32,000 nucleotides of DNA from an uncultured Verrucomicrobiota bacterium (GCA_937860055.1 CALMBO010000009.1:54414-86413); one strand, 5' to 3'; shown: positions 1-19,871, counted from the stretch's first letter. The notes: generated by a model not told the origin, from the letters alone. Program-made: numbers and translations.

Positions 1-2
1 CG

Positions 3-143
3 CCGGACGGCCTGCCGGCGGGCCTGCACGTGGTCGGCCCGGCGTTCCGGGAGGAACTGGCGCTGCGGATCGGCGCGGCGTACCAGCATGCGACGGAGTG
101 GCACCGGAAAAAGCCGGCGGATCCGAAAGGGGGCCGGCCATGA
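3..143 (+). CDS. gatA: Asp-tRNA(Asn)/Glu-tRNA(Gln) amidotransferase subunit A, C-terminal fragment (5' end lies outside the window)
   Basis: Frame 3 translates as PDGLPAGLHVVGPAFREELALRIGAAYQHATEWHRKKPADPKGGRP*, a typical GatA C-terminus. Its stop overlaps the gatB start (ATGA). Confidence 0.85.
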   Translation, partial: PDGLPAGLHVVGPAFREELALRIGAAYQHATEWHRKKPADPKGGRP

Positions 144-1567
144 GCGACTACATTCCCTCCATCGGGCTGGAAGTGCACGTGCAGCTGAAAACGCGCACGA
201 AGATGTTCTGCGCGTGTCCGGCCCACGAGGAAGGCGAGCCGAACACGACTGTCTGCCCGGTGTGCATCGGACTGCCGGGGGCGCTGCCGGTGATGAACCG
301 CGAGGCCATCCGCAAGACCGTCAAGGTGGGCCTGATGATCGGATCGCGGATTTCGCTGCGGAGCATGTTCGACCGGAAGAACTATTTCTATCCGGACATG
401 CCCAAGAACTACCAGATCACCCAGCAGGCGGCGCCGCTGTGCATCGGCGGAGCCGTGGAGATCGAGGCCGGCGGGCAGAGGAAGACCATCCGCGTGAACC
501 ACATCCACCAGGAGGAGGATGCGGCCAAAATCACGCACATGGAAACCACCTCGGAGATCGATTTCAACCGCGCCAGCACGCCGCTGATGGAGCTGGTGAC
601 GGAGCCGGACATGTCGAGTCCGGACGAGGCCATTGCGTTCCTGACGGCGCTGAAGGAGATGCTGATCTACGCGGGCATCAGCGACTGCAACCTGGAGCTG
701 GGGCATATGCGCTGCGATGTGAACTCGTCGGTGCGGCCGTCGGGGACGGACAAGCTCGGCGTGAAGTGCGAAATCAAGAACATGAACACCTTCAAGGGGA
801 TCCACCGCGCGCTGGAATACGAGCTGGAGCGGCAGGCGGAGACTCTGCGCAAGGGCGGCACGCTGGTGCAGGAAACGCGGCGCTGGGACGACGAGGCCGG
901 GATCACCCTGCCGATGCGATCAAAGGAATATGCGCACGACTACCGCTATTTCCCGGAGCCGGACCTGCCGCCGGTGGTGCTGGACGCGGCGACGGTGGAG
1001 GCGTGGCGCGCGGAGCTGCCGGAGCTGCCGGCGGTCCGGCGCGCGCGGTTCGTGAAGGACTACGGCCTGCCGGAATACGATGCGGGCGTGCTGACGGCGG
1101 ACAAGGCGATATCCGAATACTTCGAGGCGGCGGCGAAGAAGTCGAAGAACTTCAAGGCCGTGTCGAACTGGGTGATGGGCGAACTGCTGCGGGCGCTGGG
1201 CGAGAAGGGGCAGGGCATCGCGGACGCGAAGATTTCCCCGGAAGCGCTGGCGGCGCTGGTCGCGCTGGTGGACGCCAGGACGATCAACATGCCGGCGGCG
1301 AAGGATGTGTTCCAGGTTCTGTTCGAGAACGGCGGGGATCCGGCGGCCATCGTGAAGGAAAAGGGCCTGGCGCAGGTCAGCGATGCGGGGGCCATCGACG
1401 GTTTCGCGGAGCAGGCGATCGCGGCGAACGAGAAGGTCGCGGCGGAATACCGTGGCGGCAAGGAGGCGGCGCTGATGTTCCTGGTGGGGCAGGTGATGAA
1501 GCTCTCGCGCGGAAAGGCCAATCCACAGCTGGCGGCGGACGCGCTCCGCCGGAAGCTGGGAAAATAG
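140..1567 (+). CDS. gatB: Asp-tRNA(Asn)/Glu-tRNA(Gln) amidotransferase subunit B
   Basis: MSDYIPSIGLEVHVQLKTRTKMFCACP..., FDRKNYFYPDMPKNYQITQ, MELVTEPDM, RCDVNSSVRP, KCEIKNMNTFK are GatB signatures. The start is reassigned to the ATG at 140, which overlaps the gatA stop. Confidence 0.97.
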   Translation: MSDYIPSIGLEVHVQLKTRTKMFCACPAHEEGEPNTTVCPVCIGLPGALPVMNREAIRKTVKVGLMIGSRISLRSMFDRKNYFYPDMPKNYQITQQAAPLCIGGAVEIEAGGQRKTIRVNHIHQEEDAAKITHMETTSEIDFNRASTPLMELVTEPDMSSPDEAIAFLTALKEMLIYAGISDCNLELGHMRCDVNSSVRPSGTDKLGVKCEIKNMNTFKGIHRALEYELERQAETLRKGGTLVQETRRWDDEAGITLPMRSKEYAHDYRYFPEPDLPPVVLDAATVEAWRAELPELPAVRRARFVKDYGLPEYDAGVLTADKAISEYFEAAAKKSKNFKAVSNWVMGELLRALGEKGQGIADAKISPEALAALVALVDARTINMPAAKDVFQVLFENGGDPAAIVKEKGLAQVSDAGAIDGFAEQAIAANEKVAAEYRGGKEAALMFLVGQVMKLSRGKANPQLAADALRRKLGK

Positions 1568-1601
1568 GAGAAGCGCCCCCGGGGGGCCGGCAAGTCCCCT
1601 T

Positions 1602-1642
1602 CCCCGCAGAAGCGAAGGCGGCGCCCTTCGCTTCCGGCGGGG
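1602..1642 (+). terminator. Strong hairpin downstream of gatB (terminator-like or structural; no clear U-tract)
   Basis: CCCCGC-a-GAAGCGAAGG [cggcgc] CCTTCGCTTC-cg-GCGGGG: a 10-bp perfect inner stem plus a 6-bp outer stem. Confidence 0.5.
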
Positions 1643-1663
1643 AGCCCGGTCATCCGGTTCGTC

Positions 1664-1692
1664 TTGAGTTTGCGCGCAAAACATGGGATATT
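1664..1692 (+). promoter_or_regulatory. Candidate sigma70-type promoter for the GNAT gene
   Basis: TTGAGT - 17 nt - GATATT, with the -10 ending 7 nt before the ATG at 1700. Confidence 0.35.
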
Positions 1693-1699
1693 TCCGCAA

Positions 1700-2221
1700 A
1701 TGAATCCTCCCCATGCCATTCCGGCGACCGAGTCCTTCAAAACGGTACGGGTCGCCTCGCGTGAAGAGGCGGAGGAAGTGTCGGCGTTCCTGCTGCAGCC
1801 GGGCTTGTTCGGCACGCCCCTGACCCCCGGCGAGCAGGAGGAATTCAAGACCCATCCGGCCACGGCCGTCGGCTGCGCGGATGACGCCTACTGGTTGGTG
1901 CGGGATGGCCAAGGCGCGGTCTGCGCCGTGATCGGGGTCCGCATGAACGTGGAGAAAACCGGCATCTTCGAGGTCAGCGCGTTGGCGATCCATTCCTCCC
2001 GCCGCCGCCGGGGACTGGGCCGCCGCCTGCTCGAACTGGCATTGCGTTTCGTGGCCGAGGCCCATGGCCGCGGGCTGCTCTTCGAGACCTCCTCGGATCC
2101 CTCCTACGCGCCCATGCACAGCCTGCTGCATGCACTCGGGTTCAGGCAGGTCGGCCGGTTCCCCGATTTCTACTATCCGGGCGAAGACACACTCTGGTAT
2201 TATCGGGCGATAGAACGTTGA
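1700..2221 (+). CDS. GNAT family N-acetyltransferase
   Basis: Motif VCAVIGVRMNVEKTGIFEVSALAIHSSRRRRGLGRRLLELALRFVAEAHGRGLLFETSSDP...LHALGFRQVGRFPDFYYPGEDTLWYYR matches the GNAT acetyl-CoA binding motif. ATG at 1700 is preferred over the TTG at 1664. Confidence 0.85.
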   Translation: MNPPHAIPATESFKTVRVASREEAEEVSAFLLQPGLFGTPLTPGEQEEFKTHPATAVGCADDAYWLVRDGQGAVCAVIGVRMNVEKTGIFEVSALAIHSSRRRRGLGRRLLELALRFVAEAHGRGLLFETSSDPSYAPMHSLLHALGFRQVGRFPDFYYPGEDTLWYYRAIER

Positions 2222-2238
2222 CTCAACCGGGATATCCG

Positions 2239-5205
2239 ATGGATCGACCACGTTTCACGCTTCCCGTCCTTTTTGCCTTGGTCCTCCTGCTGGGGGGGGG
2301 ATTGTTCGTCCTGCGCGATCGCATTCCCGAAGCCTTTTCGCTGTCCAATTCGGTTCCGTTCGAGAAATTGTCCAAGGCGGCCCGTTGCGCCGACGGGTCC
2401 TTCGCCGTCGTGTTCGATTCCAACAAGCGCATCGCACGGGTGGGGGCCGATGGTTCCCTGATCTATCTCATTCCGGCCCGCAATGCCCCGGAAAAGGGGT
2501 TTTTCTTTGCCAACGAGATCGCGTTCGACCCCGGCGGCCACCTGTATGTGGCGAGCACGTATCTCGACACCGGCACGCTGGCGGTCAACCGCGAGGCGAT
2601 CGTGCGCTTTTCCCCGGAGGGCCGCTGGGAAGGCGTCCTCTACTCGCTCGAACACGACCCCGACCAGTATGTCGACAACATCGGACTGATCCGTTCCCTC
2701 CAGTGGACTCCCGACGGCCTGCGCTTCTGCCTTGCGCGCGAAGAAGGGATCCACAGCCTGCGGGTCGATCCCGCCGACGGGACGAAGGTCGACGAAACCA
2801 TCACGCCGTTCCCTGAGGGGGCGGCCAGCGTGATCTACGCCACGATTTCCGCAGACGGCCGCGAACTGGCGTATTCCACCGGCGCCACGGAGATCTACAC
2901 GGCGGTTCCCGGCCAGACCCCCTCCAAGCGCTATGACGGGCGCGCGCTACCCGACGAGGTGTACTCGATTCCTTCGGATCTCCATTACCAGGACGGCGAA
3001 CTGTATTTTTCCGATCTGGGCCGCGACGCCATCATGCGGCTGGCGGGGGAAAACGCCGCCGAGCCCCTGTTCGACCGGGCCATCGCCCTTGCGCATGGCT
3101 ACGAAGATGCCTTTTTCGAATGCAAGGGGTTCCAGCTGGAACCCGACCACCTGACCCTGCCCAACAACGGCAAGGTGGTCTATTTCCCGACCGGAGGATC
3201 CGCCGCCATCCGCACCTTCGACCGTGCCCGGGGCACGGCCGCGCTCTGGGGCCGTCGCGCCGCCCTCTGGTCGCAAATGGGATTGTTCGCGCTCCTGTCG
3301 GTCGCGCTGGTTTCGCTGGCGATCCGCCATGCCTCGCCCGACCGGCGGCGTCTGGCGAAGCAGGTCGCGCTGGTGGCCATGATGCTGGGCACGGCGGTGG
3401 GCATCACGACCTACATGATCTTCAACAACATGAACCGGCGGCTGGCGGAGGAGGCCCGGAACAACCTGCGGGGATATCTGGCGGTCGGACAGCTGGTGGT
3501 GGATGCCGAGGCCGTGGACCGGATCCAGCATGTGAAGCACTACATGAACGAGGATTACCAGGCCGTGCTGCGGCAGCTGCGGCAGACGATCACCCGGGAG
3601 GGCGAAATCGCCTCGGGCACCTATTCGGGCGTCTACAAGATCTTCGGCGACAAGCTTTCGGCGCTGGCATACCACGACGGCCTGCGGGGCATCTTCTATC
3701 CGTACGATTACCAGTACGGCCAATCCATCTACGCGCAGGTGGCCCAGACCGGCCAGCCGTACGTTGGCGAAGTCGTGGACATCTATGGAGTCTGGCTCAA
3801 CGGCGTGATTCCGCTGGTGAGCACGAACGGCGCCACCGTCGGCCTGCTCGAAGTGGGCGTGGATCAATCCGCCCAGCGCGAAGCCAACCGCGAGCTGTTC
3901 AAGAGCACGCTGATCGATCTGGCCATGGTCCTGTTCGTGCTGCTGTTCATCTTCTTCGAAATCGGGTTCTTCAGTTCCCATGTGCTGGACCAGGCCGGAC
4001 CGGATGACGAGAGGGCCGGGCAGCGCTACGACGAAGGGGCGTTGCGGTTCGTTTCATTCCTGGCCATCACCGGTGTTTTCCTTTCCGCCTCCTTCCTGCC
4101 GTTGTACATCAAATCGCTGGCCCCGGCTGTCGGCCGCGTCCCCGACCTGATCATCGGCCTGCCGATGGTGGTTGAAACGCTCTGCGGGGCGCTGATCGCG
4201 CTGCTCTATGGCCATGTCCGGATCCGCATGGGCATCAAGACGGATGTCGTGCTGGCCTGCCTGGTGATCATGGCGGGGATGGTGGCCACGGGGCTGGCCA
4301 CGACGTTCGACCGCCTGGTCGTCGGCCGGGTGCTGGTGGGCATGGGCATGGGCCTCCTGATGATCGCGTTCCGGACCTATTTCCTGATCGAGAAAAACGA
4401 AACCCGGAAGGAATCGGGCATCATCGCGCTGACCGCCGGAGTGGTGGCGGGCATCAATACCGGATCGGTTTCCGGCGGCATGCTGGCCGACCGGGTCGGC
4501 ATGAAGCCGGTGTTCCTGATCCAGGCGGCGCTGCTGGTGCTGGCGGCGGCGGCCGCACTGGTGCTGGTCCGCAACCGCCGGCGCGGGAAGCCGGCCGTCG
4601 CGGCCGCCGTCGCCCTTTCGCCGTGGACATTCCTGCGCGACCGCGCGGTCTGGAGCTTTTTCGTCTTTGTCTTCCTGCCGGTCACAGCCTGCGGCCTTTT
4701 CCTGGGATTCCTCTTCCCGCTGTTTGCCGAAGCGCAGGGCCACACGATCAACGAGATCAGCCTGGCCTTCATGCTGTTCGGCGCCGCCAGCGTCTATCTG
4801 GGGCCGTCCCTGACGCGCCTGACCACGGTCCTGTTCGGGGCGCGGCGCGCCATGCCCGTCGGGGCGCTGGTCATGACCGGCGCGCTGCTGCTGTTCGCCT
4901 ATTTCCAGACCCTCGCGGCCGCCTACGCCACCATCATCCTCTTTGGCCTGACGGAAAGCCTGCTCTTCAACCAGGGGATGTCCTACTATTCCTCGCTGCC
5001 GGGAGTCCGCCGCTTCGGGGAAGACAAGGCGATGGGGGTCTACAATGTCTTCGAATCCGGCGGGGAGGCGCTGGGGCCGATGGCCTTCGGGCTGGCCGCG
5101 AGCATGAGCCTGGGCGCCGGCATCGCCGCCATCGCCGCCGTGCTCGGCGCCTGCGCCGTGATCTTCTGGGCGATGGGCCCGCGGCCGGGAGGGGGGCGTC
5201 CATGA
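2239..5205 (+). CDS. Multidomain membrane protein: N-terminal TM + beta-propeller/SMP-30-like domain + TM pair + extracytoplasmic Cache-like sensor + C-terminal MFS transporter
   Basis: Hydrophobic N-terminus, repeated propeller-like strands (GFFFANEIAFDPGGHLYVAS, SLQWTPDGLRFCLA, DLHYQDGELYFSDLGRDAIMRL), TM segments, a ~140-residue sensor-like region, then a 12-TM MFS-like half with GMLADRVGMKPVFLIQAALLVL and GLTESLLFNQGMSYYSSLPGVRR. The ATG at 2239 is more plausible than the TTG at 2218. Confidence 0.75.
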   Translation: MDRPRFTLPVLFALVLLLGGGLFVLRDRIPEAFSLSNSVPFEKLSKAARCADGSFAVVFDSNKRIARVGADGSLIYLIPARNAPEKGFFFANEIAFDPGGHLYVASTYLDTGTLAVNREAIVRFSPEGRWEGVLYSLEHDPDQYVDNIGLIRSLQWTPDGLRFCLAREEGIHSLRVDPADGTKVDETITPFPEGAASVIYATISADGRELAYSTGATEIYTAVPGQTPSKRYDGRALPDEVYSIPSDLHYQDGELYFSDLGRDAIMRLAGENAAEPLFDRAIALAHGYEDAFFECKGFQLEPDHLTLPNNGKVVYFPTGGSAAIRTFDRARGTAALWGRRAALWSQMGLFALLSVALVSLAIRHASPDRRRLAKQVALVAMMLGTAVGITTYMIFNNMNRRLAEEARNNLRGYLAVGQLVVDAEAVDRIQHVKHYMNEDYQAVLRQLRQTITREGEIASGTYSGVYKIFGDKLSALAYHDGLRGIFYPYDYQYGQSIYAQVAQTGQPYVGEVVDIYGVWLNGVIPLVSTNGATVGLLEVGVDQSAQREANRELFKSTLIDLAMVLFVLLFIFFEIGFFSSHVLDQAGPDDERAGQRYDEGALRFVSFLAITGVFLSASFLPLYIKSLAPAVGRVPDLIIGLPMVVETLCGALIALLYGHVRIRMGIKTDVVLACLVIMAGMVATGLATTFDRLVVGRVLVGMGMGLLMIAFRTYFLIEKNETRKESGIIALTAGVVAGINTGSVSGGMLADRVGMKPVFLIQAALLVLAAAAALVLVRNRRRGKPAVAAAVALSPWTFLRDRAVWSFFVFVFLPVTACGLFLGFLFPLFAEAQGHTINEISLAFMLFGAASVYLGPSLTRLTTVLFGARRAMPVGALVMTGALLLFAYFQTLAAAYATIILFGLTESLLFNQGMSYYSSLPGVRRFGEDKAMGVYNVFESGGEALGPMAFGLAASMSLGAGIAAIAAVLGACAVIFWAMGPRPGGGRP

Positions 5206-6812
5206 GAGGGGTTGGCTGGTACCGCAGGCAGACGGTCCGGTGGAAGATCTTCATTCCGTTCTTCGCCATCACCCTTCTGTCGTCCACGCTGTTCACCGTC
5301 TACGGCTTCATCCAGAACAACCGGGCCATCGTCAACGAGATCGACAAGCGCCTGCTCATTGCCGCGTTGACGATGCCGCAGCTGCTGCCGGCGGATTATT
5401 TCGACCGGGTGCAGGCGCCGGACAGCATCCCGGAGGAGGAGCACTGGGCCCACACGCGGAGGCTGGAGCTCTTTCTCCGCAACGTCGGCGGCACGTACCT
5501 CTACGCGCTGCACAACGTGAGCAACCGGTACTACTTCGTTGCGTCCGCCGCCCTGGACACGCCGTATTGGACGGAATACGAGAAGCCGGCGCCGAACATC
5601 TACGAGGTCCAGAAGACGTGGCAGCCGCACATTTCGACCACGCCCGATCCGGACTACGGGCTGCTCCGTTCCGTCGTGATCGGGTACAAGGATTCGGCGG
5701 GCCGCCGCTTCATCATCGGGGCCGACATCCATGCCTACGAGGTGGCCGCGCTCAAGCGACGCGCGTTCCTGAACTTCTTCATGATGGGCGCGGCCAGTTT
5801 CTTCCTGGCGGTCCTGTTCAGCTATGTCGCCAGCACGGCCATCACGCAGCCGCTGTCCCGCCTCTCGAACTTCACCCGCCGCCTGGTGGAAGGCGGTTTT
5901 TCCGCCGCCATCCGGGTGGATCCCACCCTGTTTCCGGACGGGAACCAGACCGGTTCCGAAACCGCGATCCTGGCCTACGACTTCGACCAGATGCAGACGA
6001 ACCTCGCCGCGCATATCGAGCAGCTGAAGCTCACGCAATCCGCGCGGGAACGCGCGGAGAGCGAGCTGCGGATCGCCGGCCAGATCCAGGCGACCTTCCT
6101 TCCGGGCGCGTTCGACCCGTCCCTCTTCGGCGGGCGTGTGCAGATGCAGGCCGCCATGAAGACGGCCAAGCAGGCGGGCGGCGACTTGTACGACTACTTC
6201 GCGCTCGACGAGTCGCACCTGTTTTTCGCCATCGGGGATGTTTCGGGAAAGGGCATGCCGTCCGCCATGTTCATGTCGGCCGTGGTGGTGCTGCTCCGTT
6301 CCGCCGCCAAGCAGCTGCGCGATCCCGCGGAGATCCTGCGGCGGGTGAACGACGATCTGGCGATCCGCAACGAGAGCTGCACCTTCGTGACCCTCTTCAT
6401 CGGGATCCTCGACACCCTCACCGGCGAGGTGGTGCTGGCCAACGGCGGTCACAACCCGCCCCGCCGCCTGGGCGCCGACGGCGCGGTTTCCGGCGTGCCC
6501 GTGAAGACCAACATCGTCGTGGGGGCCGTGGACGGGGCGACATTCGCCCGCGAGACGCTGCTTTTGCGGCCTGGCGAGACGCTGTTCCTCTACACGGACG
6601 GCGTGACCGAGGCGATCGACGAAGGCGGAAAGCTCTATGGGGAGGAGCGCATGGATCGCCGGCTCTCCGCGTTGCCGGCGAAGGGGGGCGTTCCGGAGGT
6701 CATTCAGGGGGTTTCCGACGATGTCGCCGCCTTCAGCGGTTCGCGGGACCAGTCCGATGACATTACCCTGCTGGCGTTGCGGTACGAGCCCCGCGGGGCG
6801 AAAACTTCTTGA
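5202..6812 (+). CDS. Membrane sensor-HAMP-PP2C/SpoIIE family serine phosphatase (RsbU-like)
   Basis: N-terminal TM, extracytoplasmic region, TM + HAMP (TAITQPLSRLSNFTRRLVEGGF), then SpoIIE/PP2C motifs AGDLYDYFALDE, AIGDVSGKGMPSAMFMS, NGGHNPP, LYTDGVTEA, DDITLLALRY. The ATG overlaps the upstream stop (ATGA); the ORF track extends it upstream spuriously. Confidence 0.93.
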   Translation: MRGVGWYRRQTVRWKIFIPFFAITLLSSTLFTVYGFIQNNRAIVNEIDKRLLIAALTMPQLLPADYFDRVQAPDSIPEEEHWAHTRRLELFLRNVGGTYLYALHNVSNRYYFVASAALDTPYWTEYEKPAPNIYEVQKTWQPHISTTPDPDYGLLRSVVIGYKDSAGRRFIIGADIHAYEVAALKRRAFLNFFMMGAASFFLAVLFSYVASTAITQPLSRLSNFTRRLVEGGFSAAIRVDPTLFPDGNQTGSETAILAYDFDQMQTNLAAHIEQLKLTQSARERAESELRIAGQIQATFLPGAFDPSLFGGRVQMQAAMKTAKQAGGDLYDYFALDESHLFFAIGDVSGKGMPSAMFMSAVVVLLRSAAKQLRDPAEILRRVNDDLAIRNESCTFVTLFIGILDTLTGEVVLANGGHNPPRRLGADGAVSGVPVKTNIVVGAVDGATFARETLLLRPGETLFLYTDGVTEAIDEGGKLYGEERMDRRLSALPAKGGVPEVIQGVSDDVAAFSGSRDQSDDITLLALRYEPRGAKTS

Positions 6813-6883
6813 TTGGGCGGGCAAGGATGCGACAGGATGATTTTATATGACGAGGTCAAGGATCGTCGGGAAGGTGGTGCGGC

Positions 6884-7219
6884 ATGGTGATCTCCATTGA
6901 GAAGCAGGGTGAAACGGCGATCGTGGCGGCGGGCGGGCGGCTGGATGCCGTGGGGGCGCCGGAGCTTGAAGCGCGCGGAAAGGCGTCGATCCAGGAAGGA
7001 TCGAAGCGGCTGCTGCTGGATCTGGCCAAGGTGGAATACATCAGCAGCGCCGGCTTGAGGAGCCTCCTGGTCCTGGCCAAGACGGTGAAGGCGGCCGGGG
7101 GGGGGATGGCCCTGTGCAGCCTCACCCCGGCTGTCCGCGAAGTGATGACCATGTCCGGCTTCGACAACATCTTGTCGCTGGCGGCGGACCGTTCCGCCGC
7201 GATGGGGCTTTTGAAATAG
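6884..7219 (+). CDS. STAS-domain anti-anti-sigma factor (SpoIIAA/RsbV-like)
   Basis: MVISIEKQGETAIVAAGGRLDAVGAPELE...LLLDLAKVEYISSAGLRSLLVLAKTVKAAGGGMALCSLTPAVREVMTMSGFDNI; the ISSAGLR motif contains the regulatory Ser. Confidence 0.93.
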   Translation: MVISIEKQGETAIVAAGGRLDAVGAPELEARGKASIQEGSKRLLLDLAKVEYISSAGLRSLLVLAKTVKAAGGGMALCSLTPAVREVMTMSGFDNILSLAADRSAAMGLLK

Positions 7220-7238
7220 GCCCCGGGTTTCCGCGCCC

Positions 7239-7646
7239 ATGATGGAATTCTCCATGGTCAATACCGTTGCCGACCAGCAGCGGGTGATGGACGAGGTGGA
7301 AGCCCTCCTGTCGGCCCGTTCGGTTTCCGCCCGGCGGAAATCCGCGGTCCGCCTCGCCCTGGACGAGCTGTTGTCCAACGTCATCCAGTACGCCTATGAC
7401 GACGGCGGCGTCCACCGGATCGGGGTGAAGATCGATCCGGGAATCCCGTTCGTCCTGGCCATCGAAGACGACGGGCGGCCGTTCGATCCCTTGTCGGATG
7501 CGCCGGCGCCGGTCCTCGAAGGCCCGGTGGAGGATCGGCCCGTCGGCGGGCTGGGGCTGCACCTTCTCCGCTCGATGGGCATGGAGATGGACTACCGGCG
7601 CGAGAAGGGCCGCAACATCCTGCGCGTGGTTTTTCCCGGGGAATAG
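7239..7646 (+). CDS. Anti-sigma regulatory factor / serine kinase, HATPase (RsbW/SpoIIAB-like)
   Basis: VRLALDELLSNVIQYAYDDGGVH...LAIEDDGRPFDPLS...GGLGLHLLRSMGMEMDYRREKGRNILRVVF matches the N- and G-boxes of HATPase_c_2. Confidence 0.92.
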   Translation: MMEFSMVNTVADQQRVMDEVEALLSARSVSARRKSAVRLALDELLSNVIQYAYDDGGVHRIGVKIDPGIPFVLAIEDDGRPFDPLSDAPAPVLEGPVEDRPVGGLGLHLLRSMGMEMDYRREKGRNILRVVFPGE

Positions 7647-7655
7647 GGGGCGGCC

Positions 7656-8357
7656 TTGTCTTCCATGCTGTACATGAGCAGTCCGATCAACGCCCTGCTG
7701 GAGGGGTTCTATCGCGACGACATCACGATCGACACCCTGAGGGAGAAAGGCGACTTCGGCATCGGCACGTTCAACAACCTCGACGGCGAGATGATCGCCC
7801 TTGGCGGCCGGTTCTTCCAGCTCGACCTCGATGGCAACGCCCGTCCGGCGGAAGGCGGCATGAAGACGCCCTTTTCCACCGTCTGCCATTTCCAGCCGGT
7901 GTTGTCGGAGGAAATCGCCATGCCGCTGTCGCACGAGGCCTTCACGGAGCGGCTGAAGGGCATCCTGCCGTCGGACAACATGTTCTATGCCCTCCACATG
8001 GAGGGGCGGTTCCGGGCGGTCAAGACGCGATCCGTGCCGCGGACGGAGAACTACCGGCCGCTTTCCGAGGCGACGGAACGCCAGAAGATCCGCCAGTTCC
8101 AGGATGTCGAGGGGCATCTGGTGGGATTCTACACGCCGTCGTTCGTTCCCTCGGTCAACGTGCCGGGATACCACTTTCATTTCATCGACAAGACCTTTTC
8201 GGCGGGCGGCCATCTGCTGAGTTGCGAGCCGGGGCATCTGGACATCCGGTTGCAGATCTTCTTCAGCATGGAGCTGACGCTTCCCAAGACGCTCGACTAC
8301 CTGACGGCTTCCTTCACGCGCGACGCGAAGAAGGACCTGGAAAAAGCCGAGAAATGA
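7656..8357 (+). CDS. budA: Alpha-acetolactate decarboxylase
   Basis: LYMSSPINALLEGFYRDDITIDTLREKGDFGIGTFNNLDGEMIALGGRFFQLDLDGNARPA...TPFSTVCHFQP...VPGYHFHFIDKTFSAGGHLLSCEPG; typical family motifs with metal-binding His. An alternative start is the ATG at 7665. Confidence 0.93.
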   Translation: MSSMLYMSSPINALLEGFYRDDITIDTLREKGDFGIGTFNNLDGEMIALGGRFFQLDLDGNARPAEGGMKTPFSTVCHFQPVLSEEIAMPLSHEAFTERLKGILPSDNMFYALHMEGRFRAVKTRSVPRTENYRPLSEATERQKIRQFQDVEGHLVGFYTPSFVPSVNVPGYHFHFIDKTFSAGGHLLSCEPGHLDIRLQIFFSMELTLPKTLDYLTASFTRDAKKDLEKAEK

Positions 8358-8363
8358 TCCGGC

Positions 8364-11312
8364 TCAGGCGGCGCGCCCGGAGCTTTTCTTTCCCGGGAGG
8401 CGCACGGCGAGAAGCGCGGCGAGGGCCGCATTCATGAGCCAGAGCGCCGCCATGTCGAAGCCGTAGGTGCGGAACGTTTTTCCCGCGATCCGCTTTTCGC
8501 CGGCCATGAAGGGGGCGCGCCCCCATGCCGATCCGGGCGGCTGGTAGACGGGATCCGAAAGCCGGACGAGCCGGCCGCCCTGGATGCGGAGCGGCGCCAA
8601 CAGGCCCCTGTTGCGGGCCAGTTCGGCGATTCTCCGGTTGGTGTGCGCCTTGACGAAGGCCGACAGCCCGTCCTCGCCGTGTTCGGCGAGCAAGGCGTTG
8701 TGGATGTCGTTGCGGCGGCTCTGGACCGTTTGACGTCCGGCCTGTTCCGCGCGGGACAATTCGCGCAGGCTGGACTTGAGCGCATCCAGCCCGGAACGAT
8801 CCGGCGGGCGGAGACGGGCGGCGGCGAGGGCGGCGCCGGACAGGCGGCCGGATTCACCCTCCAGGGCGCGGAATTCGCGGACGAGCAGCGCGCGGGTTTC
8901 CTCGCGCTGTTCCGGGGTCGCGGAATCCAGGTAGAGCGCGTCGAGGCGTCCGATGATCGCGGGAATCCAATCGTTCACGAGATAGTCGATCCGGGAGAGC
9001 TCCCGGTCGACCTCCTCGAATTGCCGCTGGCAGGCGTTGGATTGGAATTGTTCGACAACCAGCGCCTCGAAGGCCCAGCGGGAGGCCGTGAGCTCGCCGA
9101 TCAGGGGGGGATGGGCGTTCGGAGCGTCTCGGGAGCGGAGATCGTCGTAGGAGACGATGAGCCCGCCCAGCAGCATCTGGGGCAGGAGCAGCAGCGGCAG
9201 CAGGATATAAACGGTGACGGCCGATTTGAACCAGGACGAGACATTGAGGCCCAGGAAGCCGCCGAAGACGGCGGCCGAGAACAGGGCGAACCAGAGCTTG
9301 GCGAAGAAGCCGGGGATCTGCAGGATGCCGGCGCCGATTCCCGCGCACACGCCTGTCTGGAGAAGGGCCAGGAGAACGACATGGAACATCTTGGCTCCGG
9401 AATAGGCGCTCCAGCTCAAATGGAGAAACCGCTCGCGGCGGAGCATGCGGCGGTCGCGCACGATTTCCTCCGCGCTCACGCTCAGGCCCAGGAAGATCGC
9501 CACGATGACGGACATGAAAAAGTAGATGTGGAGGTAGGGGTTGTCGCCGAGGACATAGGAGCCGCCGGGCGCGGCATGGCAGAGCCATGCGGTGAGGAGG
9601 GCGAGCAGCGGCGGTTCCAGCAGGTTCACGAGCCGGTAGGCGCGGTTGGCGAAGCGGGCGCGGAACGTGCGCGAGAAGAACACGGCGAGCTGGCGTGGCC
9701 ATGAGGGACGGTTGAGCTGGCGGGGCGGGAGGCCGGCGGCCTTCGTTTCGGCGGCCGGCGCCGGGGCGCTCTTCCTCCAGGCCTCGTGCCAGAACTCCGG
9801 CGGGAATTTCCGCTCGCGGGAGAAACGGCCATCGGCGTCGATCTCCTTGGATTCGATGATGGAAAAGATCTGTTCGGGGTTGACGTTTCCGCACTCGGGG
9901 CAGACGCTGCGGTCGGAGCCCGCCAGATGGGCGGCTTCGCGGAAGTGGCGGGCGGCTTCCAGGGGATGGCCCATGTAGATGGGGACGCCGCCCCGGTCGA
10001 GGATCCACAGCGCGTCGAAGAGCCGGAACAGGTTGGAGGAGGGCTGGTGGATGATCACGATGACCAGCCGTCCGCGGGCGGCCTGCGCCTTGAGCAGCCC
10101 CATGACGATGTCGGAGTCCGCGGAGGAGAGGCCGGAGGTGGGTTCGTCCACAAAGAGGACGGAGGGTTCGCGGATGAGTTCCAGCGCGATGTTCAGCCGC
10201 TTGCGCTGCCCGCCGCTGATGGTTTTCGCCAGCGGGTCGCCCACCCGGAGATCGGCGATCTCCTCCTGGTGGAGTTCCCGGAGCATTTGGCGGACGCGCT
10301 CGCGGCGTTCCTCGTCCGCCAGTTTGGCGAGGCAAAGGCGGGCGTTGTAGTCCAGGTTTTCCCGGACGGTCAGATCCTCGAAGAGCAGGTCGTCCTGGGG
10401 GACGTATCCGATGACGCCTTCGAGCGCGCCGGGGTTCCGGTACAGGTCGATTCCATTGAGGACGACCCGTCCGGAGCCGGGAGGGAGGCTCCCGTTGAGC
10501 AGGTTGATGAGCGTGGATTTTCCGACGCCGCTGCCGCCCATCACGCCGATGAGGCGTCCTCCCGTTTCGCGGAAGGAAAACCCATGGATGCCCTGTTCAC
10601 CGCCCGGAAAGCGGTACTCGACGTCTTCGGCTTCGAACCGGATCGGGGCGGAAACCGCGGCAAGGTCGAACAGGCGTTCGATTTCACAAAGGTAGGCCGC
10701 CTGTCCGCCGGGGTCGCGGAGGATCGAGCCGGGTTCGAGGGGATGGAACCGGCCGGGCGCGACCGGGTTTTCATCGAGGGAAAGCTCGCCTTGCAGGACG
10801 CGGATGAAGAAGCGCCCCGTCCACGGGCTGTGAAGGGCGGCGATTTCCGCGCGCCAGCCGGCGCGACGGAAGCGCCGGCAGAGAGGGGTGTCGGGCGAGG
10901 CGGGCGTGGCGGCGGCGAATTGCCGCCAGGCCTCCAGTTCGGCTTCGGGCACATGGAAGGCTTCCGCCACGCGGGCCATGAGACGGTCGACCCGTTCGCC
11001 GGAATCCGGGAGCGAATGGCGGATCTGCAGCGCGTGCAGCAGGAACGACTGCTTTTCGCCGGGCGACAGGAGGGTGGCGAGGCGGGCGCAGACCCCGTCG
11101 ATGCCGTGTTCGGGGGCGTCGGAGCCGGCTTGTTCCGCGTAGAGCTCCAGGAGATCGCCGAAAATGCCGAAGCTGGCATCCGTGCGGCGGAGCCCCATCG
11201 TGCCGACGAGGTAATCCTCCACCAGCCGGGCGGCTTCGTCCTTCTTTTCTCCCGCCAGCGCGGAAAAAACGGCGAATACGTGGATGATCCCGTTCAGCGA
11301 ATGTTCATGCAT
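8364..11312 (-). CDS. Fused ABC transporter: N-terminal helical (possibly TerB-like) region + ABCG-like ATPase + CxxC linker + ABC-2 type membrane domain
   Basis: Walker A MGGSGVGKSTLINLLNG, LSGGQ-like TISGGQRKRLNIALELIREPSVLFVDEPTSGLSSADS, H-loop VIIHQPSSNLF, CPECGNVN linker and multiple C-terminal TM helices. Confidence 0.92.
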   Translation of the reverse strand: MHEHSLNGIIHVFAVFSALAGEKKDEAARLVEDYLVGTMGLRRTDASFGIFGDLLELYAEQAGSDAPEHGIDGVCARLATLLSPGEKQSFLLHALQIRHSLPDSGERVDRLMARVAEAFHVPEAELEAWRQFAAATPASPDTPLCRRFRRAGWRAEIAALHSPWTGRFFIRVLQGELSLDENPVAPGRFHPLEPGSILRDPGGQAAYLCEIERLFDLAAVSAPIRFEAEDVEYRFPGGEQGIHGFSFRETGGRLIGVMGGSGVGKSTLINLLNGSLPPGSGRVVLNGIDLYRNPGALEGVIGYVPQDDLLFEDLTVRENLDYNARLCLAKLADEERRERVRQMLRELHQEEIADLRVGDPLAKTISGGQRKRLNIALELIREPSVLFVDEPTSGLSSADSDIVMGLLKAQAARGRLVIVIIHQPSSNLFRLFDALWILDRGGVPIYMGHPLEAARHFREAAHLAGSDRSVCPECGNVNPEQIFSIIESKEIDADGRFSRERKFPPEFWHEAWRKSAPAPAAETKAAGLPPRQLNRPSWPRQLAVFFSRTFRARFANRAYRLVNLLEPPLLALLTAWLCHAAPGGSYVLGDNPYLHIYFFMSVIVAIFLGLSVSAEEIVRDRRMLRRERFLHLSWSAYSGAKMFHVVLLALLQTGVCAGIGAGILQIPGFFAKLWFALFSAAVFGGFLGLNVSSWFKSAVTVYILLPLLLLPQMLLGGLIVSYDDLRSRDAPNAHPPLIGELTASRWAFEALVVEQFQSNACQRQFEEVDRELSRIDYLVNDWIPAIIGRLDALYLDSATPEQREETRALLVREFRALEGESGRLSGAALAAARLRPPDRSGLDALKSSLRELSRAEQAGRQTVQSRRNDIHNALLAEHGEDGLSAFVKAHTNRRIAELARNRGLLAPLRIQGGRLVRLSDPVYQPPGSAWGRAPFMAGEKRIAGKTFRTYGFDMAALWLMNAALAALLAVRLPGKKSSGRAA

Positions 11313-11333
11313 GGAACGGAGCCGCCCCCTGCG

Positions 11334-12149
11334 CTACTGGAGGATTTCCTTGCGGGCCTTGGCGATGGCGGGCCGCAGCTCATCCAGCTGTGCGGCGGAG
11401 ATGGCGGGCTGATCGCCCAGGATGACAAGGATGGAGACCAGCAGGTTGAGGCGGTCGTGCTTCTGGACCGTCATGGCGAACTCGGGGCTGTCGCCCAGGC
11501 GATAGAGGAGCCTCTTGTAGGCCTGGAAGGAGTCCCGCATATAGGCGACATACATCATGGAGGACGGGCTGTAGTTGGAAAGGACGCACAATTCGGAGGT
11601 GAGATGCAGTCCTTCGATCAGGAAGCCATAGAGGCCATCCACCACGAGATCGACGCCTTCGCCGGTCTGCAGCTTGTCCTGCCAGATTTCATCCTTTTCC
11701 TGGTCCTTGGCCAGTTGCCGCAGCCGTTCCTCCCCGCCGGGCTGGTCGATCTGGTCGAGCGCCTCGCGGTAGCGGCGTTCCATGTCGGGTTGCGGATAGC
11801 CCAGCTGTTCCAGCAGCCGGTAGAGGCCCTGGCCATAGCGGGCGGTGGGTTCGCGCTGGTCGAACGTCGATGCATAGGTCAGGTCCATCAGGTACACGCC
11901 CACCATCAGGCGGCGCCTTTCCATGCTTTGGAACCGGTCGACATCGACGGGGGCGACGAGTTCCGGCAGATAGGAGGATCCGCTTTCGCGCAAGGCCGCC
12001 ATCACTTCGCCCATCCGGGGCCCTTCCTTCTGGACGGCCTCGACATCGCCTTGGATCTGCTTCCGGAGTTCGTCGGAGATCTCGAATTCGGAAGCTTCCA
12101 GCGCCGTCGCCATCAACGCCATCCCCAACGCCATGCCGCATGCCTTCAT
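11334..12149 (-). CDS. Conserved hypothetical secreted protein, likely co-transcribed with the ABC transporter
   Basis: Signal-peptide-like MKACGMALGMALMATALEASEF followed by ~250 helical residues. Stop lies 21 nt before the ABC gene. Start reassigned to 12149 from the 12224 ORF. Confidence 0.7.
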   Translation of the reverse strand: MKACGMALGMALMATALEASEFEISDELRKQIQGDVEAVQKEGPRMGEVMAALRESGSSYLPELVAPVDVDRFQSMERRRLMVGVYLMDLTYASTFDQREPTARYGQGLYRLLEQLGYPQPDMERRYREALDQIDQPGGEERLRQLAKDQEKDEIWQDKLQTGEGVDLVVDGLYGFLIEGLHLTSELCVLSNYSPSSMMYVAYMRDSFQAYKRLLYRLGDSPEFAMTVQKHDRLNLLVSILVILGDQPAISAAQLDELRPAIAKARKEILQ

Positions 12150-12328
12150 CTTCACGTGCCACCTCCTGTTTCCCGTGGACCCGGCGACCGCCGGTCGCCA
12201 ACATGCGGGAGAATGCTGAACCATTCGGGAAGTCGCGTCAACGGTTTTGTGATTTCCCGGCCCGGCGCTTCCGCGACTCCCGGCATAGGCAGGGCGAGGC
12301 GGCCGGCGGATGGGGCCTGGCCGTTTCC

Positions 12329-12357
12329 TTGCCTTGCCGGGGTCGTTGTGCTACAAG
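12329..12357 (+). promoter_or_regulatory. Candidate extended -10 promoter for the orphan STAS gene
   Basis: TTGCCT - 17 nt - TACAAG, with TG one base upstream of the -10 (TGcTACAAG). Confidence 0.4.
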
Positions 12358-12383
12358 GGCCCCAACCAAGAAAGGCGGGACAC

Positions 12384-12746
12384 ATGGCTTTGACGCTGAA
12401 GGTTGCTGAGAATACGCCGCGCATCTTCGTGGTGTCGCTGGGCGGGTCGCTGGATAGCACCACTTTTCCCGCGCTGGAGAAGAAAATGGACTCCCTGATC
12501 GTCGAAGGCGCGGCCAAGGCCATCACGCTGGACCTGGCCGGGCTGGAGTTCATCAGCAGCATGGGCATCCGGGTCATCTTCAAGGCCAAGAAAGACCTGG
12601 TGCGCACCGGCGGCTCCCTGTTCCTGGCGCGGGTTCCGCCGCCCATCCAGAAGGCCCTGGAAATCATCAATGCGCTTCCGTCCATGCAGATTTTCTCCAG
12701 CATCCAGGAAATGGACGACTATCTGGCCAAGATGCAGAAGCCATAG
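12384..12746 (+). CDS. STAS-domain protein (anti-sigma factor antagonist-like)
   Basis: MALTLKVAENTPRIFVVSLGGSLDSTTFPALEKKMDSLIVEG...LDLAGLEFISSMGIRVIFKAKKDLVRTGGSLFLARVPPPIQKALEII. RBS-like AAAGG upstream. Only the last part of the 9786..12746 ORF is real. Confidence 0.9.
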   Translation: MALTLKVAENTPRIFVVSLGGSLDSTTFPALEKKMDSLIVEGAAKAITLDLAGLEFISSMGIRVIFKAKKDLVRTGGSLFLARVPPPIQKALEIINALPSMQIFSSIQEMDDYLAKMQKP

Positions 12747-12798
12747 GCTGTTTTGCGGCCCAGGCGGAACGCGGGCGGGGTCGGGGGAGCCGTCCGGG

Positions 12799-13728
12799 CT
12801 AGCCATTCCCTGGCGCGCCGTCCGGTCCGGCCGCAAGCCCGATCGTGACGTGGCTGTTGCGGATCTGCGCTTCGATCTGGCGGCGCAGGCTGGCCGCCAC
12901 CGCCTGGATTTCCCCGGCCTTCTTTTCCGGGGCGAATTCCAGGAGGATTTCGATGTAGGCCTCCGGGCCCGATCGCCGCGACCGGATGCCATGGAGGAAC
13001 TCATAGCCGTCGAAATGCCTCGCCAGTTCGCGCAGGATCAGGATCTGGTCCTCCTCCTCGAGCGTCCGGTCGAGCAGTTCGCCGACCGAGGTGGAAAAGA
13101 TGCCCATTGCGGCCATCAGGATGGAGCCGGCGATCACGAGGGACGCGGCCGGGTCGATATAGCGCGCCCACCAGAAGCGCGCCAGGACGATGCTCGCCGC
13201 CAGCGAAAGGAGGATGAAGGCGTTGGCCGCCGCGCGCGTGAAGTGGAGGCGCGCCTGCGCCTCCAGCAGCGGCGAATTCTCCTGTTTCGCCGCGCGCCGG
13301 CATCGCCGGGCCACGACGCCGTTGATCACGACATAGACCAGCTGGGCCGCGATGCTGATCTGGATGCCGATGCCGGCGAGATGGGCGGGGTGCAGGATGT
13401 TGCGGACGGCGTTTCCAGCGATGACCAGCAGGCAGGCCGTCATGAGCACGCCCACGAACAGGCTGGCCAGGTGCTCCATCTTGCCCAGGCCATAGTCGAA
13501 GCCTCCGCCCGACCCGCGAGCCATTCGCCGGATCGCCCACCACGAGAGAAAGACCGCCACGAATTCGAGGAAGGTTTTGCAGAAGTCGGCGAGGATCACT
13601 GCCGAGTTGGCGGCGGCCATGGCGCCGAAGGTGACTAGGGTGTCCGCCAGCGCCATGATCGAAGCCTGGCGGGCGACCTTTTCCCGCGAGAGATTGGGTT
13701 TTCCGGCGGTTTCAGCCGGCGACTGCAC
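12799..13728 (-). CDS. Cation diffusion facilitator (CDF) family transporter
   Basis: Six-TM CDF-like N-terminal domain (FDYGLGKMEHLASLFVGVLMT; YIDPAASLVIAGSILMAAMGIFSTSVGELLDRT) and a cytoplasmic C-terminal domain. Starts with GTG. Confidence 0.85.
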   Translation of the reverse strand: MQSPAETAGKPNLSREKVARQASIMALADTLVTFGAMAAANSAVILADFCKTFLEFVAVFLSWWAIRRMARGSGGGFDYGLGKMEHLASLFVGVLMTACLLVIAGNAVRNILHPAHLAGIGIQISIAAQLVYVVINGVVARRCRRAAKQENSPLLEAQARLHFTRAAANAFILLSLAASIVLARFWWARYIDPAASLVIAGSILMAAMGIFSTSVGELLDRTLEEEDQILILRELARHFDGYEFLHGIRSRRSGPEAYIEILLEFAPEKKAGEIQAVAASLRRQIEAQIRNSHVTIGLAAGPDGAPGNG

Positions 13729-15909: not shown

Positions 15910-16608
15910 CTAGGCCGTGTAGACCATCCAGAGGCCGGCGAGGAGGACCAGGACGCCGCAGGTTTTCTTGAGGATCAAGGCGCCCCGCGAGGCCTCGTTC
16001 CAGTCCAGGTAGTGCTGGACGCTTTCGGTGAAGGTGCCGGCAAGGACGATGACGGCGCAGTGGCCGATGCCGTAGGCCAGCAGGAGGAGGATGCCGTAGG
16101 CCATCCGGGAATCGGCCAGCCGGAAGGTGACGGCAAGCATGGGCGCCATGAAGGCAAACGTGCAGGGACCCAGTGCGACGCCGAACACCAGGCCGAGGAG
16201 GAAGGCCGCGAGGCGGCCGCGCTTCTTCATTTTGACCTGTCCCGGACCGGTGAACGGCATCGGGACAATTCCCAGCAGATGCAGGCCGACGAACAGGAAA
16301 ATCGCGGCCACGAAATAATTGCCATAGGCGCCGACGTCGCCCAGCATGCGCCCGGCCGTTGCCGTGACGGCGCCGATGAGTCCGATGGTGACCAAGATGC
16401 CCAGCGCGAACAGCAGTGCGATCTGGAAGGCGCGTTTCGTGGAGATCTGTCCTTGTTCGTCGATGAATCCGACGATGAGCGGGATGCTGGCGAGATGGCA
16501 GGGGCTGAGCAGGATGCTCAAGAGGCCCCAGGCAAACGCGGCGGAGAGTGCGACGGCGGGGCCGCCCTCGATGGCTCGGGTCAGGGCGGTGAAAAGTTGC
16601 TCAAGCAT
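15910..16608 (-). CDS. CcdA/DsbD-like transmembrane thiol-disulfide electron carrier
   Basis: Six-TM protein with the paired active-site cysteine motifs LLSILLSPCHLASIPLIVGFI and VFGVALGPCTFAFMAPML. Confidence 0.9.
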   Translation of the reverse strand: MLEQLFTALTRAIEGGPAVALSAAFAWGLLSILLSPCHLASIPLIVGFIDEQGQISTKRAFQIALLFALGILVTIGLIGAVTATAGRMLGDVGAYGNYFVAAIFLFVGLHLLGIVPMPFTGPGQVKMKKRGRLAAFLLGLVFGVALGPCTFAFMAPMLAVTFRLADSRMAYGILLLLAYGIGHCAVIVLAGTFTESVQHYLDWNEASRGALILKKTCGVLVLLAGLWMVYTA

Positions 16609-16611
16609 CGG

Positions 16612-17790
16612 TCAAGTCTCCGGTTGCGGGAACCATCGCCGGGTGCGGGTGCAGATCTTCACCAGCCCGAGCATGACGGGCACCTCGATCAGGACGCCCA
16701 CCACGGTGGCCAAGGCGGCCCCCGAGCTGAGGCCGAAGAGCATCGTGGCCGTGGCGATGGCGACTTCGAAATGGTTGGAGGCACCGATCATCGCGGCGGG
16801 CGCGGCGTCGGCATAGGAAAGCTTCAGGACGCGGGCGGCGGCGTAGCTGAGCCAGAAGATCAGGAGGGTCTGGAGGAACAGCGGGATCGCGATCCAGAGG
16901 ATCGTCAGGGGGTTGGCCAGGATGACCTCGCCCTTGAAGCTGAAGAGGAGGACGAGGGTGGTCAGCAGGGCGATGATCGTGACGGGGGTGAGGACATGCA
17001 GGAACTTTTCCCTGAACCAGGCCTCGCCCTTCGCCGCGAGGATCCACTTGCGCGAATAATAGCCGGCGACGAGCGGCAGGGCCACGTAGATGGCGATGGA
17101 AAGCAGCAGGGCCTGCCACGGGACGGGGAGGCGGCCGACGCCCAGCAGGAATCCGCCGAGCGGGCCGTAGAGCAGGAGCATCGTCAGGGAGTTGATGGCC
17201 ACCATCACGAGGGTGAGGCCGTCGTTGCCGCGCGCGAGATAGCCCCAGACCAGCACCATGGCCGTGCAGGGGGCGATGCCCAGCAGGATGCACCCGGCCA
17301 GATAGCTGCGCCACAGGGGCACCTGAAGCATTTTGACGCCTTCGGCCAGCACCACCGTGCCCGCGCCGTGCTCCGCGCCCACGGGCAGGTCGAGACCGAA
17401 GGGCATCTTGACGAGATCGACCGCATCCGTTCCGATGAACGTCCGGAAAACGAATCCAAGGAAGAAATACGCGATGGCGTACATCGTGAACGGCTTGATG
17501 GCCCAGTTGATGAACAGCGTCAGCCACACGGGCTTGCCGCTCTTGCCCGCCTGGATCACCGAGGCGAAATCGATCTTCACCATGATGGGATACATCATGA
17601 AGAACAGGCAGACGGCGATGGGGATGGAGACCACCGGCGCGCCGTTGACGAAGATGGCCATGCCATCGAGGGTCTTGGCGAAATCCGGCGCGAGCTTGCC
17701 GAGGAGAATGCCGCCGGCGATGCACAGCGCAACCCAAAGGGTCAGGTAGCGTTCGAAGGGGTTGGTCAGCTTGCGATTTTCTCCGTTCAT
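16612..17790 (-). CDS. acr3: Arsenite efflux transporter, ACR3 family
   Basis: [96 protein letters not shown]. Start ATG at 17790 overlaps the arsM stop. Confidence 0.96.
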
Positions 17791-18587: not shown

Positions 18588-18590
18588 GAT

Positions 18591-19036
<446 letters not shown>

Positions 19037-19040
<4 letters not shown>

Positions 19041-19609: not shown

Positions 19610-19622
19610 CGCGGCGCCTCGT

Positions 19623-19856: not shown

Positions 19857-19871
19857 GGCATTCCTTTCTCG

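Follow-up and report, generated by a model that had tools for sequence, protein, structure and literature searches.

A 32,000-nucleotide stretch of DNA from an uncultured Verrucomicrobiota bacterium (GCA_937860055.1 CALMBO010000009.1:54414-86413; hereafter the window, approximately 65% G+C) carries, at positions 2239-7646 of the plus strand, four consecutive genes encoding a sensor fused to a major facilitator superfamily (MFS) transporter (sensor-MFS), a membrane phosphatase of the PP2C/SpoIIE type, a STAS anti-anti-sigma-like protein and a HATPase serine kinase, an order and domain content that had been described from the sequence and are confirmed by Pfam. We read these genes as part of a dual-receptor operon, in which the same or a related outside cue would gate the transporter and activate a paralogous HAMP-PP2C receptor that dephosphorylates the STAS protein and thereby titrates the kinase, a reading to which we give a probability of roughly 0.6. 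Partner-switching systems of this kind are well understood downstream, the input signal of most of them is unknown, and the anatomy of the input found here is unusually informative. What is new is this input layer, namely a receptor-transporter as the partner of the phosphatase and a conserved core of three genes, which begins with a GNAT acetyltransferase gene upstream of the sensor-MFS and phosphatase genes. Neither the sensor-MFS family nor its constant association with the phosphatase seems to have been described, the switch itself being ordinary; in the full-text literature, no description of either the family or an MFS/SpoIIE operon was found.

Two membrane receptors with a shared sensor module

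The sensor-MFS protein is composed of a first transmembrane helix (TM1), an NHL-repeat beta-propeller, a TM2-TM3 hairpin, a Cache-like domain, TM4 and a 12-TM MFS domain. Its AlphaFold2 (AF2) model (pLDDT 86) contains the corresponding parts: TM1, an all-beta region at amino acids (aa) 38-331, a TM hairpin, an alpha/beta region at aa 423-542, a long TM helix and 12 more helices. The propeller, for which the window sequence alone gives a weak SGL match only, is recognized with the family profile, which matches the sensor domain of PknD (1rwi, E 2e-17), the PknD-derived designed 'Pizza' proteins (E 1e-36) and the NHL domains of TRIM2/3/71. The second extracytoplasmic domain is termed Cache-like because its fold assignment rests on the secondary structure of the AF2 model; sCache_3 gives a weak match at aa 492-552, and the best of the Cache family models, sCache_3_2/3_3, score 18-20 bits and stay under the curated cut-off of 28. 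No other part of the protein is as conserved as a stretch of this domain, AYHDGLRGIFYPYDY, which also holds the invariant columns 475-493. The conserved A-x-AYHDGLRGIF-x-PY (aa 475-489, window 3661-3705) coincides with the sole low-confidence sensor loop of the model (aa 481-488, pLDDT <50) and may be where a ligand or a partner binds. At the C-terminus, MFS_1 is matched at aa 604-947 (E 1.7e-25) over positions 3-347 of its 347, and Foldseek retrieves NorA and VMAT1/2 with TM-scores of 0.80-0.87, a coverage and a similarity that describe a complete 12-TM fold. Profile matches likewise point to VMAT and NorA, with a weak NCBIfam match to MdtG.

The phosphatase, modelled with a pLDDT of 90.6, consists of TM1 with a long helix (aa 12-61), a Cache/PAS-like domain (aa 66-177), TM2 with HAMP-like helices (aa 178-299) and a PP2C domain (aa 305-528). 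The closest structure found by Foldseek is the PP2C domain of SiaA (6k4e, TM-score 0.88), followed by RssB, SpoIIE and Rv1364c. Of its earlier designation as a sensor-HAMP-SpoIIE phosphatase, the SpoIIE part stands, but PF00672 (HAMP) scores 12.2 bits in the window protein (E 0.24) against a cut-off of 25 bits; the region is called HAMP-like because the AF2 model places two helices there (aa 178-230 and 253-299) and PF00672 is recognized in relatives at 33-36% identity.

The two proteins have related sensors. The TM-sensor-TM part of the phosphatase aligns in register with TM3-Cache-TM4 of the sensor-MFS, with 27% identity over 154 aa by BLASTP and a probability of 96.7% (E 4e-10) in a profile-profile comparison with hhalign, so that the phosphatase belongs to the same sensor family, as a member devoid of the propeller. 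When the N-terminal 599 aa of the sensor-MFS were taken as the query of a full-database HMMER search, 454 representative clusters proved to share this module, nearly all of them aligning over its whole length. The MFS C-terminus is present in 84 of the top 149 module relatives (clusters at 50% identity), and among 47 sampled relatives Pfam assigns MFS_1 to 25, HAMP to 18, Guanylate_cyc to 11, HisKA/HATPase_c to 3-4 and SpoIIE to 2; direct NHL-Cache-HAMP-PP2C fusions also exist (P0158, P0198). Because the C-termini of these relatives differ, the N-terminus is a genuine receptor module with exchangeable outputs, which in the course of evolution has been joined to cyclases, to kinases, to PP2Cs and, most frequently, to an MFS transporter.

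Two residues set the transporter-fused members apart. Position 574, in the last helix of the sensor, is a glutamate in 60 of 60 MFS-type members and a leucine, isoleucine or valine in all 41 HAMP-output members, so that Glu574 is diagnostic of the MFS fusion; Arg603, at the start of the MFS domain, occurs in 98% of the MFS-type versus 0% of the HAMP-type members. Judged from this conservation, the pair is the strongest indication of a mechanical coupling between the sensor and its own transporter, and Glu574 argues for a gating of the one by the other. More speculatively, NHL-Cache-MFS proteins might constitute a widespread and undescribed group of transporters gated by a receptor through the transmembrane Glu/Arg pair (the top 149 hits include at least 84 such clusters at 50% identity). 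They would travel with a dedicated GNAT-fold enzyme and with a signalling enzyme that has a paralogous sensor, and in the lineage of the window the two receptors would form a split hetero-receptor; we hold this broader picture to be possible and rather doubtful. If the sensor does gate the transporter, the protein would be a rare bacterial ligand-gated facilitator, and transport and gene regulation would be wired to one cue.

A conserved core of three genes

Full-length homologs of the sensor-MFS at 50% identity or more number 61 and are labelled Kiritimatiellia, Verrucomicrobiota, Victivallales and Desulfobulbus. Since the same four genes follow one another in at least 10 non-redundant contigs and the stop codon of the MFS gene overlaps the start codon of the phosphatase gene in 22 of 22 loci (about 18 non-redundant), the arrangement is not a matter of chance. 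The overlap reported for the window is correct, the phosphatase ATG at 5202 overlapping the TGA of the MFS gene at 5203-5205; elsewhere, it takes the 4-nt form (A/G)TGA down to 65% identity and the 7-nt form ATGCTGA in the 50%-identity clade, and is also present in a locus of a Desulfobulbus genome (L063).

The GNAT, sensor-MFS and PP2C genes are contiguous in every locus at 50% identity or more that has enough flanking sequence, and it is these three that form the conserved unit, with STAS and HATPase as a variable add-on. The preliminary description had taken the four genes from sensor-MFS to kinase as the unit, a delimitation that we reject, STAS and HATPase being missing beside the core in several clades. 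It had also staked its proposal on the linkage between the MFS fusion and the phosphatase, and this linkage is kept in every homologous locus.

Genes of partner-switching type join the core in three arrangements. STAS, HATPase and the acetolactate decarboxylase gene alsD lie downstream of the phosphatase gene in the closest clade (clade A) only; in L063, a HATPase_c_2 gene lies divergently upstream of the GNAT gene, with a type VI secretion system (T6SS) cluster downstream; and in L015, genes for STAS fused to GPP34 (Golgi phosphoprotein 3-like) flank the core. Such fusion genes and a porin-like gene follow the phosphatase gene in Victivallales loci, and no kinase gene was found near the core in the Victivallales-like STAS-GPP34 loci. 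The fusions themselves (L015, 79-1092 and 7128-8192; L016, 7479-7676) have an architecture of which we met no description.

The association of related sensors extends beyond these close homologs. A PP2C of the same architecture at 37% identity lies in divergent orientation beside a 1036-aa sensor-MFS (L060), and sensor-MFS genes at about 25% identity adjoin genes for NHL-Cache-HAMP-cyclases (L017, L018, L020, L037). In two of the three loci L017, L018 and L020, namely L018 and L020, each of the two adjacent sensors has the other as its best or near-best match.

Contractile-injection genes recur beside the sensor family, including extracellular contractile injection system core and baseplate genes, PAAR-like small proteins and T6SS genes (SciN, VasE, DotU, IcmF, TssG). 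They adjoin sensor-cyclase and GNAT loci as well as the Desulfobulbus sensor-MFS/PP2C locus (L017, 1-5451; L018, 1-975; upstream of L038-L054; L063, 14805-22961; L062, 1-539), and none was found in the window.

Upstream enzymes and the transported substrate

In loci with upstream sequence, the GNAT gene directly precedes the sensor-MFS gene, with a gap of 5-20 nt or an overlap of 6 nt, and homologs of this GNAT subfamily (E 1e-37, across phyla) adjoin distant sensor-MFS or sensor-cyclase genes. Metagenome contigs were scanned with the GNAT alignment, diverse sensor-MFS alignments offering no sufficiently conserved stretch, and this search yielded 17 Firmicute-like loci (L038-L054), with a sensor-cyclase gene directly upstream of the GNAT gene in 12 and a sensor-MFS gene in none. 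It is thus to the sensor module, and not to the transporter as such, that the GNAT is linked. The upstream enzyme usually belongs to this GNAT subfamily, but others can take its place: LPG_synthase_C, the synthase domain of MprF, as a protein of its own in L022 (5105-6004) and a SET-domain protein in L020 (5361-5957), while in L062 (6212-6997) an NNMT/PNMT-like methyltransferase lies upstream of a paralogous PP2C, beside an unrelated MFS gene.

This variety may point to a group transfer that is coupled to transport, and by analogy the transporter probably moves a compound on which the co-conserved cytoplasmic GNAT acts. The blt-bltD genes of Bacillus subtilis encode a DHA1 MFS exporter and a GNAT spermidine acetyltransferase, and resemble the window in having a NorA-like MFS gene beside a GNAT gene; Blt differs in lacking a sensor module and a signalling partner, and the analogy serves as a lead for the substrate class only. 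Together with the similarity to NorA and VMAT and the GNAT or methyltransferase neighbours, it suggests, as a lead only, that the substrate may be a (modified) amine.

The downstream switch

The remaining components are those of an RsbU/RsbV/RsbW-type partner switch, as had been proposed, with intact catalytic and acceptor motifs: a PP2C with an intact metal site (D328, D346, D466, D519 and D520, invariant in 42 homologs), a single-domain STAS protein with an acceptor serine and a GHKL kinase with N, G1 and G2 boxes. The 'YISSAGL' of the STAS protein aligns with 'FMDSSGL' of SpoIIAA (Ser58) and with TM1442, and Ser55 is the predicted phospho-acceptor. In the kinase, the N-box ELLSNVIQYA, the G1 box DDGRPFD and the G2 box GGLGLHLL align with those of RsbW (6m36). 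From these motifs, the phosphatase, the STAS protein and the kinase all look functional. The window holds a second STAS-only gene, whose product is 33% identical to the cassette STAS and keeps the serine in 'FISSMG'; an ortholog with 74% identity occupies the equivalent place in L055, with traces at the ends of L003 and L012.

The preliminary description had laid weight on the lack of a sigma factor gene nearby. Its absence holds, no sigma-factor family being matched either by any of the window's plausible genes (approximately 30 in 32 kb) or by the genes called in related loci; as a point of interest, we reject it, such a lack being ordinary for cassettes of this type. The closest kinase relatives outside the cassette sit in Cache-HAMP-PP2C/STAS/HATPase triads that are themselves devoid of a sigma gene, and published precedents include the chlamydial Rsb system, whose target sigma-66 is encoded elsewhere and which has two RsbV paralogs (PMC11619594), and SiaABCD, in which SiaABC controls a diguanylate cyclase (PMC7647112). 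Further sigma-independent STAS outputs have been reviewed (PMC8256260).

The place held by sigF or sigB in the Bacillus operons is taken here by alsD, which starts 10 nt after the kinase gene. Its product has the intact HxH...H metal-ligand motif of acetolactate decarboxylases (ALDCs) and aligns with the ALDC of 6j3d; no acetolactate synthase was found in the window. The gene follows the kinase gene in all loci that have STAS-HATPase, and the same loci share a wider synteny. It is probably co-transcribed with the kinase gene, and its membership in the system is uncertain.

Proposed mechanism and alternative readings

In the dual-receptor operon proposed here, which would comprise the GNAT, sensor-MFS, sensor-PP2C, STAS and kinase genes and probably alsD, the input layer would be formed by two membrane receptors with paralogous periplasmic Cache-like sensors. 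The first, the sensor-MFS, would present its NHL propeller and Cache-like domain to the outside, the last TM helix with Glu574 leading into the NorA/VMAT-like transporter, and the binding of an outside ligand would gate transport through Glu574 and Arg603. The second, the phosphatase, would use its propeller-less Cache module and HAMP-like helices to control the PP2C domain. Once activated, it would dephosphorylate the phosphorylated STAS protein at Ser55, and unphosphorylated STAS would bind the RsbW-like kinase and free the target held by it, which would be a sigma factor with its gene outside the operon (the situation in Chlamydia) or, following SiaABCD, a target of another kind. Both receptors would be made in fixed proportion through the conserved stop/start overlap and would answer one cue or two related ones, whether they work next to each other or assembled into a hetero-oligomer. 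The sequences establish the gene order, the domain architectures, the intact catalytic and acceptor motifs, the paralogy of the sensors, the conserved linkage and overlap and the restriction of Glu574 and Arg603 to the MFS type, whereas transport gating, the ligand, a physical complex, the direction of signalling and the target of the switch are inferences.

Several observations weigh against this scheme. STAS and HATPase are absent beside the core in L006/L032, L009, L011, L013, L033 and L034, where unrelated genes lie downstream of the phosphatase gene. Stop/start overlaps are frequent within operons, including those whose products do not assemble into a complex. A phosphatase of the same architecture occurs solo, with no sensor-MFS, in L061, and sensor-cyclase and GNAT genes are paired with no sensor-MFS in L038-L054, so that each receptor can probably work alone. 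Motif A of the MFS domain, between TM2 and TM3, is degenerate by eye (GHVRIRMGIK), and the proposal of an amine handled by the GNAT is an analogy, with an upstream enzyme that varies.

As a tentative alternative, clearly less probable than the dual-receptor reading, the sensor-MFS and the phosphatase may form a hetero-oligomer through their TM-Cache-TM modules, with the HAMP-PP2C protein serving as readout both for the propeller and for the transport state of the MFS domain, so that occupancy or flux of this trigger transporter sets the phosphorylation of STAS. The two modules are indeed paralogous, the NHL propeller, kept in the cyclase partners, is missing from the PP2C of this clade, the overlap suited to translational coupling is strictly conserved, the linkage survives a switch to divergent orientation and transporters acting as co-sensors of kinases are known, as for DctA/DcuS (PMC4280142) and CbrA (PMC7096432). 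However, each of the two proteins is self-contained in its architecture, phosphatase relatives with the same sensor occur alone, and Glu574 and Arg603 point to a coupling of the sensor with its own MFS domain and not with the partner. Transport flux as the signal, which had been put forward for this locus, is not supported. The transporter carries an extracytoplasmic receptor module and residues specific to the MFS type, which a ligand-gated transporter beside the phosphatase fits at least as well as a flux-sensing one. Were such a split hetero-receptor to exist, it would be the first partner-switching pathway with a transporter-fused co-receptor as its input.

It is unlikely that the MFS domain has lost transport and serves as a membrane scaffold or pseudo-transporter sensor in the manner of UhpC. 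The degenerate motif A would fit such a role, as would the constant presence of a signalling enzyme next to members of the sensor-MFS family. Nonetheless, the MFS domain is, with the Cache-like domain, the most conserved part of the protein across clades (mean identity of the MFS domain, 74%), its complete 12-TM fold resembles active transporters with TM-scores of 0.8-0.87, its membrane acidic residues E646, E939 and E943 are kept within the clade, and the conserved GNAT-fold or methyltransferase enzyme upstream suggests a small-molecule substrate.

Less probable still is that the alternative partner of the kinase is a local protein, either the acetolactate decarboxylase or, in Victivallales, the STAS-fused GPP34. 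The short distance between the kinase gene and alsD, their joint occurrence wherever STAS-HATPase is found, the fusions flanking the core in L015 and the non-sigma outputs exemplified by SiaABCD (PMC7647112) lend this idea some appeal, yet the linkage of alsD is inseparable from the general synteny and the enzyme, its metal site intact, resembles any ordinary ALDC. Finally, the view that the genes are independent neighbours held together by inherited synteny, which draws some support from the closest clade (syntenic throughout, including alsD, an ABC transporter and a 296-aa protein, so that conservation there is weak evidence if taken alone), is largely refuted and very improbable, as the core stays in place down to 50% identity across Kiritimatiellia, Victivallales and Desulfobulbus-labelled genomes while its type II secretion system, nucleoside phosphorylase, FabI-like short-chain dehydrogenase/reductase (SDR) enoyl-ACP reductase, T6SS and porin neighbours change, the linkage persists in divergent form at 37% identity and the two sensors are homologous. 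The present analysis also offers a concrete, testable handle on signalling in the barely studied Kiritimatiellia and Victivallales.

Other features of the window

Codon-position G+C was used to sort real genes from the many spurious open reading frames of the window (Table 1). For the GNAT gene, the longest reading frame starts at TTG 1664, and the public gene call is the 173-aa form; the kinase is 135 aa long from 7239 versus 130 aa from 7254 in the public gene calls. The upstream GNAT gene, alsD and the second STAS gene had been left out of the preliminary description. An Rfam search of window positions 1-13000 matched no family, and a scan for promoters and terminators gave nothing above shuffle expectation. 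Further along, an apparent arsenic-resistance cluster occupies 15910-21251 of the minus strand and comprises, by rising coordinate, genes for a DsbD-like protein, an Acr3/SBF permease, an ArsM-like S-adenosylmethionine (SAM) methyltransferase, an ArsC-like low-molecular-weight (LMW) phosphatase, a thioredoxin and an ArsP permease.

Table 1. Genes, domains and sites of the operon and its surroundings (window positions)
Feature	Position	Strand	Evidence
gatB	2..1567	+	
GNAT acetyltransferase, 173 aa from ATG 1700	1700..2221	+	Pfam Acetyltransf_1
Sensor-MFS fusion, 988 aa	2239..5205	+	Pfam; AF2 model
Extracytoplasmic NHL-repeat beta-propeller, aa ~30-340	2326..3258	+	Family profile; AF2
Extracytoplasmic Cache-like (PAS-like alpha/beta) domain, aa ~406-560	3454..3918	+	Weak sCache_3; AF2
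Glu574 codon, sensor helix TM4, membrane-embedded acidic residue	3958..3960	+	
12-TM major facilitator domain, DHA1-like, aa ~604-980	4048..5178	+	MFS_1
ATGA stop/start overlap, sensor-MFS / phosphatase	5202..5205	+	Read directly in sequence
Membrane PP2C/SpoIIE phosphatase, 536 aa	5202..6812	+	SpoIIE PF07228 aa 337-528, E 1.1e-45
STAS anti-anti-sigma-like protein, 111 aa	6884..7219	+	Pfam STAS PF01740, E 5e-18; TIGR00377
RsbW/SpoIIAB-like GHKL serine kinase, 135 aa	7239..7646	+	HATPase_c_2 PF13581, E 8e-20
Alpha-acetolactate decarboxylase (alsD)	7656..8357	+	AAL_decarboxy E 6e-69
Second STAS-only gene, 120 aa	12384..12746	+	

Comparison with known systems

The Rsb system of Chlamydia trachomatis, a member of the same PVC superphylum (Planctomycetes, Verrucomicrobia and Chlamydiae), shares several traits with the window operon, including a membrane PP2C said to answer a periplasmic metabolite, an RsbW-type kinase, STAS proteins phosphorylated at Ser55/56 and a cassette with no sigma gene (PMC11619594). 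Two STAS paralogs are found in both, RsbV1 and RsbV2 in Chlamydia. No transporter or GNAT is described for Chlamydia in PMC11619594, and the sensor of the window phosphatase belongs to the NHL-Cache family, a contrast with chlamydial RsbU drawn at the level of published description.

SiaABCD of Pseudomonas aeruginosa is close in another respect, SiaA being both the best named match of the phosphatase (NF038263) and its best structural match (6k4e), and SiaA, SiaB and SiaC forming a phosphatase, a kinase and a STAS-like switch with a non-sigma output (PMC7647112). The NF038263 score is, however, 46 bits against an equivalog cut-off of 700 bits, and no GGDEF domain or diguanylate cyclase gene was found among the window genes, which places the locus outside SiaABCD. 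SiaC is phosphorylated on Thr68, whereas the predicted acceptor of the window STAS is the canonical serine, and the Sia system has neither a sensor-MFS nor a GNAT.

With RsbU/RsbV/RsbW-sigB and SpoIIE/SpoIIAA/SpoIIAB-sigF of Bacillus subtilis, the operon has in common the same three protein families, the serine aligned with Ser58 and the N, G1 and G2 boxes. It differs in having no sigma gene, in starting with a GNAT and a sensor-transporter and in its phosphatase, which is a periplasm-sensing membrane protein and not RsbT-activated or divisome-bound.

A transporter or MFS homolog is tied to a membrane signalling enzyme in DctA/DcuS, UhpC/UhpB and CbrA (PMC4280142, PMC7096432, PMC6978683). There, the enzymes are histidine kinases and not part of a PP2C switch, and the transporters are devoid of a large receptor module outside the cytoplasm; in CbrA, moreover, the transporter is fused to the kinase, whereas the window transporter has a receptor as its fusion partner and the signalling enzyme, a paralogous receptor, is a protein of its own. 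PknD of Mycobacterium tuberculosis likewise displays an NHL propeller outside the membrane on a signalling protein, but attaches it to a Ser/Thr kinase through one TM helix, whereas here the propeller is followed by a TM hairpin, the Cache-like domain and then either a transporter or a HAMP output.

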